Assembly: GCA_902620285.1 (NCBI GenBank) | Contig: CACNHT010000001.1 | Coordinates: forward strand, 109,599 to 173,598 | DNA: 64,000 nucleotides | DNA from: an uncultured Alphaproteobacteria bacterium | Lineage (GTDB): Bacteria > Pseudomonadota > Alphaproteobacteria > HIMB59 > GCA-002718135 | Direction: 5' to 3' | Shown: positions 11,603 to 38,266 of the stretch, piece by piece | Numbering within the stretch: the stretch's first letter is position 1 | Layout: each line of letters opens with the position of its first letter | The notes under the pieces: model-generated | Database searches by the model: none | What the model was told of the DNA's origin: nothing | What the model saw: only the letters and a program-made list of their open reading frames with translations | Position numbers and translations under genes: made by a program

Positions 11603-11799
11603 ATTTGTTTTATAACCTAATTTATCGATAAATCTCAGTAAATATGGGAAATTTAAGAATACTTGACTTTCAATTATTCAGCTAATAGAGGGTCATTAAT
11701 AAATCCTATATTTGTAAACGAATTGAGCTTGTTACAATTGTGATAGGTACTCTAGCCCACGAGTTTCGTGCCCTGGAGTTAAATGGCTATTGGAGATTT

Positions 11800-13164
11800 A
11801 TGTTTGATACACTGAACACAAAATTTGAAAAAATTGTTCAAAGTATTCGGGGTAAGGCTGTTATATCAGAAACAGATCTTGAAGTTACATTACGTGAAAT
11901 TAGAATTGCTCTGTTAGAGGCAGATGTTTCCTTAGTTGTAGTAAAAGAATTTATAAATTCCATCAAGTCAAACATTTTAGGAAAAGAAATTCTCAAATCT
12001 GTTAAGCCAGATCAAATGATCATAAAGCTTGTGCAAGATGAGCTTGTAAAAATTCTTGGATCAGAAAATAAATCTCTAAATTTATCTTCTTCTCAATTAA
12101 CTAAAATATTGTTTTGTGGATTACAGGGATCTGGGAAAACAACTTCAATTGCCAAACTCTCCTATTTGTTAAAGAAGACTTCAAAAAAAAAAATTTTACT
12201 AGCATCAGCAGACATTTATCGACCAGCAGCACAAGAACAATTAAAAGTATTAGCCGAAGAAACTGGCTCAGATTTCTTTAATCATAATCTATCATCAGCC
12301 AGTAAGATTGTTGATGATTCCATAGACTATGCTCAAAAAAATTTATTTGATATTCTTATTTTAGATACTGCTGGACGACAAGTTGTAGATAAAAAGTTAA
12401 TGAGTGAATTAATAGAAATTGAAAATAAGTTTAAACCTGACGAAACATTATTAGTAGCAGACGCTCTAACAGGACAAGATGCTGCAAATGTAGCTAAAAG
12501 TTTTAGTGATACAATAAACATTACTGGATCAATTTTAACTCGAATAGATGGTGATAGCAGAGGTGGTGCAGCACTATCAATTAAATCGATAACAAACTCT
12601 CCTATAAAATTTATAGGACTAGGTGAAAAAGTAGAAAATTTTGAACCTTTCCATCCTGAAAGAATTGCACAAAGAATTTTAGGCATGGGAGATATTGTAT
12701 CTCTTGTCGAAAAGGCTGCTGAAAATATTGATAAAGAAGAAATGGAAGATATGGCAAAAAAGATCGCTAAAGGAAAATTTGATCTTGAAGATTTTGCCAA
12801 TCAATTAAAGCAAATGGGTAAAATGGGTGGAATCTCCGGTTTACTTTCTATGATGCCAGGTGTTTCAAAGGCACAGAAGTTAATGGCAGAAAATAAAATT
12901 TCTAATTCAATGATTGATAAACAAATAGCTATAATCAGTTCAATGACAAAAAAAGAAAGGGCTGATCCAGATATTATAAAGGCTTCACGTAAAATTAGAA
13001 TTTCAAAAGGATCTGGAACAAAAGTTCAAGACGTTAACAGGTTATTAAAACAGTTTCTCCAATCACAAAAAATGATGAAGAGAATGAAATCAATGGGCAA
13101 AGGAGGAATTCCCAGTGATTTAATGCAAAAATTACAAGGAAATCTTCCTCCAAACATAAATTAG
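11800..13164 (+). CDS. ffh: signal recognition particle protein Ffh
   Basis: The canonical Ffh N-terminus MFD.L...F begins at ATG 11800, preceded by GGAG at 11792-11795. [19 protein letters not shown](S/A)RGGAA and a Met-rich M domain are present. The track's GTG 11740 start is probably a spurious extension. Confidence 0.9.
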
Positions 13165-18571: not shown

Positions 18572-19615
18572 ATGACTCAAAAATACAATATAGCAGTAGC
18601 AGGAGCAACAGGTGCGGTAGGAACAGAAATAGTTCAAATATTAGAGCAAAGGGATTTTCCAATAGACAATTTATATTTACTTGCATCATCAAAATCAAAA
18701 GGCAAAAAAGTAGAGTTTAAAGATAAAGAAATTGTTGTAGAAGACTTATCAGAATTTGATTTTTCAAAAGCTCATATTGGTTTATTTTCACCTGGTGGTA
18801 AAATTTCTGCAGAATATGCACCAAAAGCAGCTGAAAAAGGATGTATTGTTATAGACAATACCTCTCATTTTCGAATGCAACAAAATATTCCTTTAATCGT
18901 TCCTGAAGTAAACGCTAATGCACTTGATGAATTTTTTGATGATGAAAACAGAACTAATATTATTTCAAATCCTAATTGTTCAACTATACAAATGGTTGTT
19001 GCATTAAAACCACTTCATGAAAAAGCAATTATAAACAGAGTTGTTGTATCAACCTATCAAGCTGTTTCCGGAGCAGGTAAAACAGGTATGGATGAATTAT
19101 TTAATCAGACTCAAAATGTTTATGCAAACCAAGAATTAAAAAAAGAAAAGTTCACAAAACAAATTGCGTTTAATGCCATTCCACACATTGGGGCTTTTTT
19201 AGAAAATGGTAATACTGAAGAAGAGCAAAAAATGATTGATGAAACAAAAAAAATTCTAGACGAGGAAATTAATGTTTCAGCAACTTGTGTTAGAACAGCT
19301 GTATTTATTGGCCATTCAGAAGCTGTAAATATAGAGTTTGACTCACCATTAGATGAAAAAGAAGCTAACGAAATATTATCTAACTCTGAAGGTATTTCAG
19401 TAATTGATCATCGAAAAGATGAAGGTTATGTGACTCCTGTTGAAATTGCAGGAGAGGATAAAGTTTATATTAGTAGAATTAGAAATGATCAATCAATAGA
19501 CAATGGTTTGAATTTATGGGTGGTCTCGGATAATTTGCGCAAAGGAGCAGCGCTTAATGCTGTTCAAATTGCTGAGTTAATAATTTCAAAGTATTCAGAA
19601 AAAATAAATATTTAA
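18572..19615 (+). CDS. asd: aspartate-semialdehyde dehydrogenase
   Basis: 347 aa. (V)AGATGAVG N-terminus, NPNCSTIQ active-site Cys, SDNLRKGAALNAVQIAE. Confidence 0.95.
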   Translation: MTQKYNIAVAGATGAVGTEIVQILEQRDFPIDNLYLLASSKSKGKKVEFKDKEIVVEDLSEFDFSKAHIGLFSPGGKISAEYAPKAAEKGCIVIDNTSHFRMQQNIPLIVPEVNANALDEFFDDENRTNIISNPNCSTIQMVVALKPLHEKAIINRVVVSTYQAVSGAGKTGMDELFNQTQNVYANQELKKEKFTKQIAFNAIPHIGAFLENGNTEEEQKMIDETKKILDEEINVSATCVRTAVFIGHSEAVNIEFDSPLDEKEANEILSNSEGISVIDHRKDEGYVTPVEIAGEDKVYISRIRNDQSIDNGLNLWVVSDNLRKGAALNAVQIAELIISKYSEKINI

Positions 19616-19616
19616 T

Positions 19617-19691
19617 TGGCGGTCTCGTAGGGACTCGAACCCCAAATCCATGTTCCGAAGACACGTGTGATATCCATTTCACCACGAGACC
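19617..19691 (-). tRNA. tRNA-Arg (anticodon UCG), CCA encoded
   Basis: Hand-folded cloverleaf from the reverse complement:
- acceptor GGTCTCG/CGAGACC
- D stem GTGA/TCAC, loop with GG and A20
- anticodon stem CGTGT/ACATG, loop CT-TCG-GA
- T stem TGGGG/CCCTA, loop TTCGAGT
- discriminator G plus CCA
Total length 75 nt. Confidence 0.85.
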
Positions 19692-19716
19692 CCTTGGTTT
19701 TTTTAAGTGTTTTTCA

Positions 19717-19741
19717 TTCTACACTAAATTCTACACTAAAA
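19717..19741 (+). repeat. tandem TACACTAAA motif pair (ttcTACACTAAAttcTACACTAAAa) next to the tRNA 5' end
   Basis: The same 9-mer pair recurs at 21156/21167 and 21715/21726. The reverse complement reads TTTAGTGTAGAAT x2, which is extended -10-like (TGnTAGAAT) and faces the tRNA. Confidence 0.8.
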
Positions 19742-19800: not shown

Positions 19801-21150
19801 ATGATTTCTAAAAACTCTCTTTTTAATTTAATTTTAATCTTATTATTAACTCCTTTTTCATTTTCACATCTGTACGCCCAAGGAGTTTATGATGGTAAAT
19901 ATAATGCTTCATTTGATTTTAAAATGAGTTCTGCATCAGTTTGTCCAAAAACTTTACCTATTGAAATAGAAATTGTAATTACTGATAGTAAGGCAGAAGG
20001 TTATATTTTCAATAACGGTGGAGGAAACGGACACGCATTTTGTAAGTTATATCATAATGGTCCAATAACAGGGTCAGTTGATAGTGATGGTAAAGTAAAA
20101 TTTAAGATTAAACAAAATGATTCACATTCAAGAGAGTACTCATCTTATAAAATTACAGGAGAATTAGAGGGAAGACTAAAACTATACAGTCGTAGTAGTC
20201 AGTATCATCCTACACATAAATTTACATTAGCAAGGGTTGCAGATACTAAACAGGTTACTCAAAATCAAACTACAGAAGAAAATACAACTAAAGAAGAAAC
20301 TACAAATAGTGATAATCAAAACAAAAACCTCTCATCTTCATCTGGTAGTAATACAATTAATATTGAGAATATAAACAGCATAGAAGATGCTCAAACTTAC
20401 ATCAATGAAATTCAAGCAACTATTAATATGTATTTGACTATTAATAATGTGATGAAAACTAATACTAAAAATAAATCAGAAAAAGAAAAATATAATGATA
20501 TAATAAATAAAAAAATATCATCTCTGATTAAACAAAAAGAACTTCTTCAAAATAAACTTAAATCAAGATTTTCTACACCAATTAAACCAACAAACACTAA
20601 TCTAAATGTTTCTGCTTTTAGATCTGCTGAAACATTTCCAAAAATTCCTTTTTACGTTCCAGGTACAGACGAAATAGGTGAAATGTTAGTTATCCCAAGA
20701 GTATCTGATGAGGGTTTTTTAAAATATCAACTTGATTTTTTAGATCCAACTTCTGAATATGATCAAGTAAGAGACACAATTTCAATTTTTCATGAAAATA
20801 TTGATAAAATAATTTTTGGTTTGAAAAAAGTTGATGAATGGACAGTGGTCGCTCAAGAAAACAAAGTTACTAGAAGAGTTTCAAAAACAGCAGTATGTAT
20901 TCCAGAAGGTTCTTGTGAAAATAAAAAACAAGGAGTATCCTCTACTGAAGTAGTTTTCCAAGTTTATGAAGATGGTTCTACATCAGGAAAAATACAAAGA
21001 AATAAAGGAACATTTTCTGTAGGTTATAATTTATCCGTAGAATCTTCTGTACTTTTATCTGCTTATTTAATTTATATGAGAGATATCGGTGCACAAGAGT
21101 TTAAGATTGGTTCAATGAGTGATGAACAGGTCGAGGAATTATTTAATTAG
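19801..21150 (+). CDS. hypothetical secreted/envelope protein (449 aa), cargo of module 1
   Basis: Signal-peptide-like N-terminus (MISKNSLFNLILILLLTPFSFSHLYA/QG), a Cys-containing N-domain, a T/N/E/S-rich low-complexity linker, a K/N-rich probable coiled coil and a C-terminal domain. I recognise no family motif. Confidence 0.75.
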   Translation: MISKNSLFNLILILLLTPFSFSHLYAQGVYDGKYNASFDFKMSSASVCPKTLPIEIEIVITDSKAEGYIFNNGGGNGHAFCKLYHNGPITGSVDSDGKVKFKIKQNDSHSREYSSYKITGELEGRLKLYSRSSQYHPTHKFTLARVADTKQVTQNQTTEENTTKEETTNSDNQNKNLSSSSGSNTINIENINSIEDAQTYINEIQATINMYLTINNVMKTNTKNKSEKEKYNDIINKKISSLIKQKELLQNKLKSRFSTPIKPTNTNLNVSAFRSAETFPKIPFYVPGTDEIGEMLVIPRVSDEGFLKYQLDFLDPTSEYDQVRDTISIFHENIDKIIFGLKKVDEWTVVAQENKVTRRVSKTAVCIPEGSCENKKQGVSSTEVVFQVYEDGSTSGKIQRNKGTFSVGYNLSVESSVLLSAYLIYMRDIGAQEFKIGSMSDEQVEELFN

Positions 21151-21226
21151 AACTTTACACTAAACTTACACTAAACTTTTTTTACGAATTTTGACTGTCT
21201 GTATAGAGAATTAGAAATCATACAAC
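21151..21226 (+). repeat. conserved junction arm, copy A (TACACTAAA x2 ... gaattttgactgtctgtatagagaattagaaatca)
   Basis: Gap-free alignment to 21711-21785 with 7 mismatches over about 71 nt, counted by hand from the first TACACTAAA. It immediately precedes the tRNA-half repeat. Confidence 0.85.
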
Positions 21227-21287
21227 TTCCGAAGACACGTGTGATATCCATTTCACCACGAGACCCCTTGGTTTTTTTAAATGTTTT
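21227..21287 (-). repeat. tRNA-Arg 5'-half repeat, copy 2 (39 nt of tRNA + 22 nt of upstream flank)
   Basis: 60/61 identical to 19653-19713. Starts in the anticodon loop (ttccgaag) and runs through the tRNA 5' end into ccttggttttttta. Confidence 0.9.
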
Positions 21288-21289
21288 AA

Positions 21290-21655
21290 CTAGTAATTAT
21301 TATTTTCATTAACACTTTTTGTACATGCCCAAATAATAAACCATATACTTCCAACCACAAATATACTTGTTACCATGATTGGAACTAACCACCATCCAGA
21401 TCTATTTATATCGTGTAATCTTCTACAAGCAACAGCATAGGTTGGAATTGTAATAGCAATATACGGAATGATAAAAATTAGACTACCAAGAGTTTCAATT
21501 AACTCAATTGGTACTATGGTGAATAATAAAAATGGATAAGCAAACAGAATAATAATAATAAATAATTGAAAATACCAAAATTCTGAACGACTCGCTCTAC
21601 CTGAAAAGGTTGTATATTTTTTTAAACAAGTTGTGATTGCTTCAAAAAAACCCAT
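21290..21655 (-). CDS. DUF805-family small inner-membrane protein, cargo of module 2
   Basis: 121 aa. GRASRSEFW and RRLHD.NRSGWW motifs plus 3-4 TM helices, typical of the DUF805 (YhaH/YhaI-like) family. Confidence 0.8.
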   Translation of the reverse strand: MGFFEAITTCLKKYTTFSGRASRSEFWYFQLFIIIILFAYPFLLFTIVPIELIETLGSLIFIIPYIAITIPTYAVACRRLHDINRSGWWLVPIMVTSIFVVGSIWFIIWACTKSVNENNNY

Positions 21656-21710
21656 ATTATAAATATATTACAAATTTGTTTATTTATAAATTAAAAATTA
21701 ACTTCTAAAA

Positions 21711-21785
21711 ATTCTACACTAAAGTTACACTAAACCTTTTTTATGAATTTTGACTGTTTGTATAGAGAATTTGAAATCAAACTAC
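21711..21785 (+). repeat. conserved junction arm, copy B
   Basis: See 21151-21226. Carries TACACTAAA at 21715 and 21726. Confidence 0.85.
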
Positions 21786-21824
21786 TTCCGAAGACACGTG
21801 TGATATCCATTTCACCACGAGGCC
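21786..21824 (-). repeat. tRNA-Arg 5'-half repeat, copy 3 (distal boundary of the array)
   Basis: 38/39 identical to 19653-19691. The single A-to-G change at 21822 falls in acceptor-stem position 3. The downstream flank (atttattataatt) is unrelated to the ccttgg flank of copies 1 and 2. Confidence 0.9.
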
Positions 21825-21835
21825 ATTTATTATAA

Positions 21836-22762
21836 TTATTTATTATTGAAATTTTCTAATTTTTGAATGAAATCTTTGAGAATAGGATCTCTTTTTATTT
21901 CATAGACAACTTTAATTGGGTGCCTATTTTTATCTGAAGCCCATTTCATATCATCTAAAAGAATTGGAGATGGAATTGTGTTAGTTGGTGCCCAGTCTTC
22001 GTTTAAGACATAACCAACAGCTGCCATATCCCAAATTTCTTTTGACCAACCTTTATGGATACTATTGTACTCTTTAAATCGCATTGCAAGAAATTTACCA
22101 ATTTCACCATGAGGTTCTATGTATTTTTCTATTTCTGGAACTGTTGAAATAAGATGTGAAGTTACTCCCTTACAAGGAACCATAACCAGAGAAACGCCGC
22201 TATCAAATAAAACTTGAGCACCTCCAATATCTTGCTTTAGATTAAATTCCATATTTTGTGGCCAATAAAGCGCGTTACCTCCCAACCAAACTACAACAAT
22301 TTTTTTTATAATTTCTGGCTCTTTTAACAAAGCAGAGGCAACATTTGAAATAGCGCCGATAGCTAGTACGTACAGAGGATCTTCCTCAGAACATTTTAAA
22401 GCACTTTCTATGATATTATCTGCTGCAGGCGAATTAATTGGTTTTTTTTCAAAACCTACATATTTTGTTGAGCCTTTAAAAACAAAATTATTTTTTTTAA
22501 AATTTATTTTTTCTAACAATCTATAGATTTCATCATAACTAAGTTCCATTCCCTTTTCTGGATTATCCGAACGATTATTCATTGAAAAAGGAGCTGCATT
22601 TATACTTTGCACTTCTATTTTTTCTTTTGAAAACAACATTTGCACTAAAGCAAATTGATCATCAATTTCATTGTAAGTATCTGTATCAAGAATTGCTTTA
22701 ATTTTCCCTTTTTTAAACTTAAGTTGTTTTAAAATATCTGAAAAATTTCTTTCTAAAAGCAT
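21836..22762 (-). CDS. inosine/uridine-preferring nucleoside hydrolase family protein
   Basis: 308 aa. N-terminal Asp cluster (I)LDTD...E(I)DD.FAL, typical of the IUNH fold. Confidence 0.75.
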   Translation of the reverse strand: MLLERNFSDILKQLKFKKGKIKAILDTDTYNEIDDQFALVQMLFSKEKIEVQSINAAPFSMNNRSDNPEKGMELSYDEIYRLLEKINFKKNNFVFKGSTKYVGFEKKPINSPAADNIIESALKCSEEDPLYVLAIGAISNVASALLKEPEIIKKIVVVWLGGNALYWPQNMEFNLKQDIGGAQVLFDSGVSLVMVPCKGVTSHLISTVPEIEKYIEPHGEIGKFLAMRFKEYNSIHKGWSKEIWDMAAVGYVLNEDWAPTNTIPSPILLDDMKWASDKNRHPIKVVYEIKRDPILKDFIQKLENFNNK

Positions 22763-37084: not shown

Positions 37085-38266
37085 ATGAGCACAGAATTAA
37101 TAGTTCCAACACTTGGAGAGTCAATTACGGAAGCAACTGTTTCAAAATGGCTTAAGAATATAGGCGATAATTTTGAAGCTGATGAACCTTTAGTTGAAAT
37201 TGAAACTGACAAAATTACAGTTGAAGTACCAGCTCCTCATGCAGGATCTCTAAAAGAAATAAAAGTTTCTGAAGGAACTGATGTTGAAATTGGTGGTATT
37301 TTAGGAATCTTAGATGAATCTAAAGGCAAAAAACCAACTCCTAAAAAATCTGAAACTAAAGAAGAAAAAGTAAAAGAAGAAGTAAAAGAAGTTAAGGTTG
37401 AAACAAAATCTTCACCTGCCAAATCTTCACCATCTGCAAGAAAAATTGCTGAAGAAAATAATATTAAACTTGAAGATGTCACCTCATCCCGTTCTGATGG
37501 AAGAATTAATAAAGAGGATGTAGTTTCTCATCTTTCTTCTTCAAATAAAACAACCACTAATAAAGGTGAAAGAGAAGAAGTTGTTAAAATGTCTAAAATC
37601 AGACAGACAATATCTAAACGTTTAAAGGAGGCTCAAAATACAGCAGCCATACTTACGACTTTCAATGAAATTGACATGTCCAAAGTTATGGAAATTAGAA
37701 AATCAAAAAACCAAGAATTTCAAAGTCGGTATGAGGTCAAATTAGGTTTCATGTCATTTTTTGTAAAAGCGGTAGTAAAAAGTTTGCAAGAGTATCCAGC
37801 TGTGAATGCTGAAATTAAAGATGAAAATATAATTTATAAAAATCATTTTGATATAGGTATAGCTGTTGGAACTGAAAAAGGATTAGTCGTACCAATACTT
37901 AAGGACGCTGATCAATTGAGTTTTGGAGAAATAGAAACTAAAATTATTGATCTTAGTACAAAAGCCAAAGATGGAACGCTGACCATGGACGATTTGACTG
38001 GCGGAACTTTTACAATTTCAAATGGTGGCGTTTACGGATCAATGCTCAGCACTCCAATAATCAATAGACCTCAATCTGGAATTTTAGGGATGCATAATAT
38101 TCAAAAAAGAGCAGTAGTTGTAAATGATGAAATAGTAATTAGGCCAATGATGTATGTTGCATTAAGTTATGATCATAGAATTATTGATGGAAAAGAAAGT
38201 GTTGGATTTTTAGTGAAAGTGAAAGAACTTCTGGAAGATCCATCCGAATTAGTATTAGGAATATGA
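37085..38266 (+). CDS. sucB: dihydrolipoyllysine-residue succinyltransferase (E2o)
   Basis: 393 aa. Lipoyl domain (E)TDK, PSBD region (SP(S)ARK...E), catalytic (L)SYDHR.IDG. Confidence 0.95.

Follow-up and report, generated by a model that had tools for sequence, protein, structure and literature searches.

Two small DNA units have been inserted at the tRNA-Arg(UCG) gene of the 64-kb stretch of DNA analyzed here (hereafter the window, to whose positions all coordinates refer), which comes from a HIMB59-type bacterium. The inserted DNA stands upstream of the intact gene, in reversed polarity and with a breakpoint that stays constant at the anticodon loop; each unit is present or absent independently of the other, and unit 1 has been transferred between diverged lineages. 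We propose that the three copies of the tRNA 5' half found at this locus are probably attachment (att) sites that arose when cassettes lacking an integrase inserted site-specifically into the anticodon loop, twice in succession and with the rarer polarity. The first-pass annotation of this sequence had recognized the repeats; the point that it missed is that units without an integrase behave as independent cassettes. It had also taken the host for a SAR11 bacterium, which did not hold up, as the relatives recovered with the neighboring asd gene belong to HIMB59 / MarineAlpha5.

A 39-nucleotide (nt) block, TTCCGAAGACACGTGTGATATCCATTTCACCACGAGACC, which begins with TTCCGAAG and in copy 1 ends in GAGACC, occurs three times on the + strand of the window, and no match to it was found in 100 shuffles. 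Read in the tRNA sense, the block comprises the acceptor 5' strand, the D arm, the 5' strand of the anticodon stem, the loop CUUCGGA, and A39. Since the bases to the left of copies 1, 2, and 3 are unlike one another (CCATG, ACAAC, and ACTAC, respectively), identity begins at TTCCGAAG. To the right, copies 1 and 2 have 22 further nt in common, CCTTGGTTTTTTTAA(G/A)TGTTTT, and copy 3 is followed by the unrelated ATTTATTATAATT. The comparison of the three copies thereby bears out the first-pass annotation, which had described a 5'-half repeat that breaks at the anticodon loop, runs through the D arm and the acceptor 5' strand, and in copies 1 and 2 continues into the flank. No tRNA 3' half lies beside copies 2 and 3 according to ARAGORN, Rfam, and the locus comparison, and the Rfam tRNA model has no match at either site; the only tRNA that ARAGORN reports in the window is the intact tRNA-Arg(TCG). 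Across all related loci, and across the three diverged arm types described below, the breakpoint shifts by no more than 1 nt, and in no relative does the repeat extend further into the 3' half, a possibility that the annotation had raised against itself.

To compare the locus across genomes, we used the asd protein to scan species-representative genomes, which yielded 79 related loci from single-cell genomes and metagenome-assembled genomes of the HIMB59 / MarineAlpha5 group. Exact-protein look-ups for both cargo genes gave short ocean metagenome contigs, and a metagenome scan for the junction of core and near arm, together with a separate motif search, gave additional arms; loci and contigs carry L-numbers (e.g., L077 and L131) as labels. 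In 19 genomes (20 with one single-nucleotide variant), whose asd proteins are 96-99% identical, the site is empty: ATTTATTATAATTATTTATTATTGAAATTTTC and the nucleoside hydrolase gene come straight after the tRNA. In these genomes, the flank beside the intact tRNA is the same as the right flank of copy 3 (ATTTATTATAATT), which is the empty site that had been predicted from the window alone. The CCTTGG/TACACTAAA flank that now stands upstream of the window tRNA is in no empty site; what lies between the tRNA 5' end and copy 3 has therefore been inserted, and it brought this flank along. The annotation had allowed that this flank might be ancestral, and its absence from all empty sites speaks against that. 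We found the CCTTGG arm only alongside cassettes (L077, a remnant in L067, and L113-L136), and the near arm of unit 1, which also occurs in L113, L114, L116, and L117-L126, is missing from every empty site. Other lineages have other flanks, and in the most distant ones a DUF924 gene lies right beside the tRNA.

The insertions are reversed in that the tRNA fragments lie upstream of the intact gene and that the front half of the tRNA, together with its upstream region, has been replaced, as the first-pass annotation had argued. Copy 3, with the right flank of the empty sites, is the displaced and now non-functional original 5' half. Distal copies carry one to three mutations or many (window, L077, L127, and L047), with three changes in L127 and two different ones in L077, while proximal copies are intact; in L053, the distal half is the clade-native allele and the proximal tRNA is foreign. 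The single mismatch of copy 3 is a T3->C change in the tRNA sense that would break the 3-70 acceptor pair. A copy-3-type half had been expected at empty sites, and this expectation failed: empty sites carry GAGACC, as copy 1 does, and GAGGCC is in 0 of the 79 loci. GAGGCC, which is common to some unit 2 carriers (window, L127, L128, and L130) and not to L129 and L132, thus reads as a later mutation in the displaced fragment.

On the + strand, the window reads asd, tRNA, P'1, ORF449 (+), P1, copy 2, P'2, ORF121 (-), P2, copy 3, and nucleoside hydrolase (-), where P' and P stand for the tRNA-side and far arms and the cargo genes are named as open reading frames (ORFs) (Table 1). Counted start to start between repeats, unit 1 measures 1574 bp and unit 2 measures 559 bp, with one cargo gene each, and neither the ORF list nor Pfam gives a recombinase or integrase gene in unit 1 or unit 2. 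A direct repeat of 182 nt (D1, 21137-21318 versus 21696-21877; 77% identical over its length) begins about 90 nt before copies 2 and 3. The tRNA starts one base past the stop of asd (18572-19615), and the nucleoside hydrolase stop lies 11 nt from copy 3.

Table 1. Features of the tRNA-Arg(UCG) locus and its two units, in window coordinates
Feature	Coordinates	Strand	Details
Intact tRNA-Arg(UCG) gene, putative attachment site	19617..19691	-	ARAGORN; Rfam RF00005, 56.5 bits
Putative att copy 1 (tRNA 5' half)	19653-19691	39-mer read on +	0 mismatches
tRNA-side arm P' of unit 1	19692..19740	+	CCTTGGTTTTTTTAAGTGTTTT, then TACACTAAA x2 (19720-19728, 19732-19740)
Unit 1 cargo ORF449	19801..21150	+	449 amino acids; N-terminal signal-like sequence
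Far arm P (type Pa) of unit 1	21151..21226	+	TACACTAAA x2 (21156-21164, 21167-21175), 51 nt to ...GAAATCATACAAC
Putative att copy 2, junction P(unit 1)-core-P'(unit 2)	21227..21265	+	tRNA positions 1-39, 0 mismatches
tRNA-side arm P' of unit 2	21266..21287	+	CCTTGGTTTTTTTAAATGTTTT, truncated by the ORF121 end, without TACACTAAA
Unit 2 cargo ORF121	21290..21655	-	121-amino-acid DUF805 membrane protein; Pfam PF05656, E 2.7e-25
Far arm P (type Pa) of unit 2	21696..21785	+	TACACTAAA x2 (21715-21723, 21726-21734)
Putative att copy 3	21786..21824	+	tRNA positions 1-39, 1 mismatch (GAGGCC)
Ancestral flank	21825..22762	-	nucleoside hydrolase gene 21836-22762; Pfam IU_nuc_hydro, synteny

Among the 79 genomes, only L077 and L067 carry the element, the former as one 1143-bp unit with two small secreted-protein genes, one of them Adhesin_E-like, and the latter as a lone arm remnant; L053 and L047 hold a related arm type. 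The metagenome contigs show the two units apart. Unit 2 occurs alone, directly beside an intact tRNA, in L127, L128, L129, L130, and L133, and unit 1 occurs alone with a flank like that of L057/L066 in L118, like that of L035/L044 in L119, and like that of L023/L037 in L135 and L136. In these four genomic backgrounds, counting the window, unit 1 is 99.6-99.7% identical to the window copy, while the asd end adjacent to it on the same contigs is only 85-93% identical and the downstream core DNA of L135 is 75% identical to the window. Since the assembly k of L118, L120, and L122 (141, 119, and 127, respectively) exceeds the length of the tRNA, the joins in these contigs are not repeat-induced chimeras. 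Each unit is therefore present or absent in its own right, and unit 1 has moved between diverged lineages. The existence of unit-1-only and unit-2-only loci makes the window genome a unit 2 carrier, in the hydrolase background, that was later given unit 1, and the position of this later arrival beside the tRNA fits the rule that the newest unit adjoins the target. Across all cassettes, which span 0.13-1.6 kb and hold one to three cargo genes (mostly one), the cargo is unrelated: ORF449, DUF805, Adhesin_E-like, Trypsin_2, bPH_2, and small membrane proteins.

One contig bears on excision. L131, a 614-nt contig from a Tara polar sample (SAMEA6042488), reads P2-core-P'2-ORF121-P2-core and closes unit 2 on itself; its ends overlap exactly by 55 nt, which gives a period of 559 bp, and the arm at the junction is of unit 2's own type. 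Because the 55-mer spans the 39-nt core and both flanks, reads with the P2-core-P'2 junction must exist. The contig is equally readable as an excised circle of 559 bp and as a tandem duplicate of unit 2.

The arms of the units are organized in a way that points to a specific enzyme. Six copies of the nonamer TACACTAAA are found in the 64 kb, where 0.99 would be expected; all are in these arms and come in pairs (Table 1). The metagenome scan and the motif search brought out three far-arm types, which are alignable yet diverged in an alignment of seven P arms: Pa (window, L077, L116, and L118-L136), Pb (L115 and L116), and Pc (L047 and L053). All of them keep T(A/G)CACTAAA-NN-T(A/G)CACTAAA followed by 52-53 nt to TCCGAAG, and the near-arm repeats, where present, begin 28-29 nt from tRNA position 1 despite differing intervening sequence (28 nt for the pair in unit 1). 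The reconstructed attP thus reads T(A/G)CACTAAA twice, 52-53 nt, TCCGAAG with tRNA positions 1-31, and then CCTTGGTTTTTTTA, after which more TACACTAAA repeats often follow, 28-29 nt on. As in lambda-like sites, repeated arm motifs stand on both sides of the core at fixed distances. Motifs whose distances stay fixed although the spacers diverge are the hallmark of arm sites bound by a protein and point to a lambda-type tyrosine recombinase; such an enzyme would bind the arm sites, be encoded at another locus, and act in trans. Crossover would fall within the loop, since identity runs from the loop to the end of the gene, as the established rule predicts for a loop crossover, here mirrored to the 5' side.

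A crossover inside the 7-nt loop or at its 3' edge would then give the host's 3' half a new partner, namely the cassette's 5' half with the DNA upstream of it, and the old 5' half with the native upstream region would be shifted to the far end of the cassette. Unit 2 (DUF805) would have entered first, in the nucleoside-hydrolase background, and unit 1 (ORF449) would have followed at the regenerated tRNA. Recombination between neighboring copies would free a cassette as a circle.

Several further features of the site were noted. The sequence GA(A/T)A(T/A) lies 9-10 nt to the left of the loop in all three far-arm types (window 21209-21246, L115, and L053) and mirrors GATATC, 8 nt to the right of the loop in the D arm; the mirror may be a protein-binding symmetry, with weak statistics. 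A MAFFT alignment hinted that the far arm could be a decayed tRNA 3' half, which we rejected since the local alignment score of P1 (10.0) does not stand out from the null (9.4 +/- 1.7). Other islands at the site contain no decayed half copies with at least 25 of 39 matches, apart from other tRNA-Arg alleles. Position 28 of the tRNA (window 19664) is polymorphic in populations, with ACACG changing to ACATG on the + strand; the variant, listed for L015, L021, L026, L075, L114, and L123, turns the G28-U42 pair into A-U and makes the anticodon-stem DNA a perfect palindrome. The G28A allele is found in intact tRNAs as well as in displaced copies (L077 and L115), and the tRNA is too conserved for crossover mapping.

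A number of observations weigh against two site-specific cassette insertions as the explanation. First, the cognate recombinase was not found within the DNA searched. None of the ten integrase-sized ORFs of the window encodes a recombinase (they are FtsY, Obg, prephenate dehydrogenase, and the like), the remaining window ORFs not having been scanned; for several of these, gene order and size suggest core operons (sdh, suc, and atp). The units, the other cassettes, and the 8.6-kb island of L034 contain no recombinase either, the search being confined to these and the window ORFs. We also found no sequence with the core, arms, junction, or spacing pattern of the site in IMG/VR or, by blastn, INPHARED, and pattern searches of the 79 genome loci, five metagenome loci, IMG/VR, and INPHARED gave no parent element that bears an integrase; all of these collections were searched only with the particular site patterns (core, arms, junction, and spacing). 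Second, unit 2 is without tRNA-side repeats yet apparently mobile, inverted symmetry around the loop, which the anticodon stem provides in the tRNA, is weak in the cassette site (11/18 for Pa and 5/18 for Pb and Pc, without shift), and the L131 cycle may be a tandem duplication rather than a circle. Third, two genomes hold arrangements that the proposal does not readily accommodate. In L053 (4918-5163), which belongs to the window's clade, the native asd spacer is followed by a complete foreign tRNA-Arg(UCG) and then by an empty unit of 132 nt, whose arm is of type Pc; the last element, beside the native flank, is a standard 5' half without mismatches. The foreign allele differs from the standard at 13 positions, with compensatory changes in both halves, and is one base off the allele of the distant L072; as the proximal 3' half is foreign too, a single loop crossover cannot explain it, and an extra recombination step is needed. 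In L047 (11041-12411), two complete tRNA-Arg(UCG) genes lie in tandem; the one at 11640-11712 is a third allele, and the one at 12337-12411 is standard. A Pc unit and a decayed half copy separate the two, and small secreted-protein genes are also present between asd and the standard tRNA.

Taken further, the proposal of two cassette insertions would make the locus part of an integron-like tRNA system of HIMB59, which we hold possible but somewhat short of an even chance. Such a system would comprise a pool of cassettes (mostly one to three genes, 0.13-1.6 kb), a double-stranded site of about 150 bp, an unlinked recombinase, insertion and excision at the loop with a swap of 5' half and promoter, and circles down to 559 bp that pass between lineages.

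The best-surviving alternative, which we consider unlikely, is that the units are leftovers of larger integrase-bearing elements (prophage, satellite, or tycheposon-like), with homologous recombination between the repeats (39-61 nt) shaping their presence and absence. This is the accepted model for additive tRNA islands in streamlined marine bacteria (bioRxiv 10.1101/2020.12.28.424599), and the lone arm remnant in L067 and the "empty" 132-nt unit in L053 count in its favor. Since the cognate recombinase was not found, trans-mobilization is unproven, which also favors it. However, unit 1 has identical ends and is nearly identical in four backgrounds whose core identity is only 75-93%; it has therefore moved as a 1.57-kb unit after any decay that may have occurred. 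Also against it, every unit keeps a complete far arm, no gene fragment of a larger element is seen in any unit, and the P2-core-P'2 junction exists. We rejected a phage or satellite origin because the IMG/VR and INPHARED searches gave no sequence with the site and no viral relative of ORF449 came up; 33 IMG/VR contigs do have TACACTAAA pairs but are otherwise unlike the site.

Far less probable still is that no site-specific enzyme took part and that DNA uptake and RecA recombination used the tRNA and the 39-nt repeats as anchors, with arms alike by common descent: the tRNA is 100% conserved across lineages and would offer anchors of 36-75 nt at a locus with heavy recombination (the foreign allele in L053 and variable content on both tRNA sides). 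However, RecA can barely use anchors as short as 36-39 nt, and this process offers no route to the first junction of far arm and core. Moreover, three arm types that have otherwise diverged all break at the loop, with a tolerance of 1 nt, and still keep the repeat pair and its spacing.

Replacement of the tRNA front half raises the question of what transcribes the gene. Since the cargo gene of unit 1 is divergent from the tRNA, the promoter must lie in the 109 nt between them; we infer that the tRNA is now transcribed from a promoter within or next to the near arm of unit 1, which would make the cassette its donor. The first-pass annotation had placed this promoter in two copies of TGTAGAAT in the tRNA-adjacent flank, read as extended -10 elements that each unit would donate. 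The hexamer TAGAAT does agree with TATAAT at 5/6 positions, and it is placed 24 nt ahead of tRNA position 1, within the 109 nt where a promoter is needed. Nevertheless, we regard this placement as doubtful. TGTAGAAT is the reverse complement of ATTCTACA, that is, of the start of the TACACTAAA motif and the three bases before it, and the TACACTAAA motif is also part of both far arms, which do not lead into a tRNA. TGTAGAAT is missing from the unit 2 flank, although unit 2 abuts an intact tRNA in five contigs, and it is not an extended -10 because TG directly abuts TAGAAT. As the TACACTAAA motif is fixed on both arms, it is more likely a recombinase arm site than a tRNA promoter. A consensus promoter scan, with a total of 19 sites near the shuffled mean of 14.6, did not call TGTAGAAT and instead chose TTCAAA-17-TATAGT at 19770-19742 facing the tRNA. 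The best promoter-like match, TAGAAA-18-TATAAT (10/12; 21858-21829), overlaps the end of the nucleoside hydrolase gene, immediately upstream of copy 3, and would be the native tRNA promoter, although its -10 ends only 4 nt before position 1. At empty sites, the hydrolase gene runs in the same direction as the tRNA and ends 11 nt before it, which makes co-transcription possible.

The cargo genes themselves offer few leads. ORF449 has no significant Pfam or PADLOC match, is not in any of the 79 related genome loci, and has no viral relative that we could find; it is present on nine short metagenome contigs, as is ORF121. No convincing PADLOC match indicated a defense role for the cargo. A Thr/Glu/Asn-rich low-complexity linker in ORF449 (20261-20317) is encoded by short AAAGAAGAAA-type repeats, and a repeat resembling it is also present in an unrelated gene at 37329-37385. 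In the unit 2 contig L127 (1321-1417), past the tRNA 3' end, an inverted TACACTAAA and the inverted last 33 nt of the ORF121 region replace asd; this could be an assembly chimera or a real rearrangement.

The neighborhood of the site (asd, tRNA-Arg, nucleoside hydrolase, DUF924, and UDG) keeps its core synteny in related loci, and an intact tRNA-Arg adjoins asd in 77 of the 79. The spacing from asd to the tRNA 3' end is variable, from 1 nt in the window to 0.2-1.6 kb elsewhere (variants in L028, L032, L038, L050, L075, L076, L078, L115, L117, L118, and L122); a GNAT acetyltransferase gene lies in this spacer in L117, and no 3'-half repeats are present in the variable spacers. Between the tRNA 5' end and DUF924, L034 (11120-19724) and also L048, L049, L052, L056, and L073 carry metabolic islands of 5-9 kb with methylthioribose-kinase-like, sugar ABC transporter, MtnA-like, and SDR-fusion genes, and with no att repeats and no integrase.

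Reversed orientation at a tRNA reportedly has a precedent in the work of Zhao and Williams in 2002. In the Islander collection, 159 of 3919 islands have a 5' fragment and 2083 sites are anticodon-centered (PMC4383910), and 5'-distal recombination has been called "considerably less frequent" by Krupovic et al. (PMC6563490). The reversed polarity itself is thus a known minority case, and the cassette behavior is the point of interest. The units resemble reversed tRNA islands in having the intact tRNA at one end, a 5' fragment of the same orientation upstream, a breakpoint in the anticodon loop, and tandem arrays formed through the regenerated site. With regard to Islander, an intact tRNA gene and same-strand cognate fragments bound the insert, the 5' fragment is upstream of the gene, and an uninterrupted site is present in 19-20 relatives. 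However, reversed islands each carry their own integrase, as Islander requires, whereas unit 1, unit 2, and the other cassettes have none and measure 0.13-1.6 kb; the missing integrase is all that keeps them outside the Islander definition.

Tycheposons, which are kilobases long and carry a tyrosine or serine recombinase and replication genes (bioRxiv 10.1101/2020.12.28.424599), share with the units an oligotrophic marine host, a tRNA-adjacent island, partial tRNA copies that mark successive integrations, a rare and transient presence among close relatives, and niche or envelope cargo. On the other hand, the units lack recombinase and replication genes, and the tycheposon text does not state which tRNA end is used. 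The units also lack recombination and transfer genes and are flanked by att sites. In both respects, they are like the cis-mobilizable elements (CIMEs) of Streptococcus and other bacteria, which are bounded by functional-looking att sites, have no recombination genes, are presumed to be moved by a related integrase, and accrete in tandem. Unlike the units, CIMEs are usually several kilobases long and decay from known integrative and conjugative or integrative and mobilizable elements with an identified integrase; our units go down to 559 bp (132 bp when empty), occur in several lineages, and have no parent element in the collections searched.

In its workings, the locus is like an integron array. 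Like integron cassettes, the units mostly hold a single gene, bring their own recombination site, line up head to tail with the newest beside the site, are present or absent independently, may circularize (L131), and encode no recombinase. Yet they fail integron membership, which calls for attC and intI. The single-stranded fold expected of attC is absent (z 0.28), as are inverted repeats of at least 8 nt, and we rejected an attC-like folded site on these grounds; the target is a tRNA gene instead of attI, and the arms carry direct repeats like those of lambda-type arm sites. No intI/attI platform lies among the neighbors, and no intI is present among the ten integrase-sized window ORFs or in the L034 island, the full flanks of the 79 loci not having been screened. 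We found no published description of this combination, namely cassettes that hold one to three genes (mostly one) and can be as small as 559 bp, a shared site made of arm plus tRNA half, no linked integrase, and near-identity in diverged lineages, and the literature on HIMB59 islands does not mention cassettes of this kind.

HIMB59 and SAR11 bacteria have few recognizable mobile elements yet large flexible gene pools, which raises the question of how single genes enter and leave their genomes. At this locus, units of 1.57 and 0.56 kb carry one envelope-type gene each, and unit 1 is nearly identical where the core differs by 7-25%. Should a recombinase that acts in trans be confirmed, the cassettes would provide a concrete and testable mechanism of gene-by-gene exchange, as well as a natural case in which an essential tRNA is repeatedly given a new 5' half and promoter. 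They would then rank among the smallest site-specific integrative elements known and would represent a new route of gene flow in streamlined ocean bacteria.

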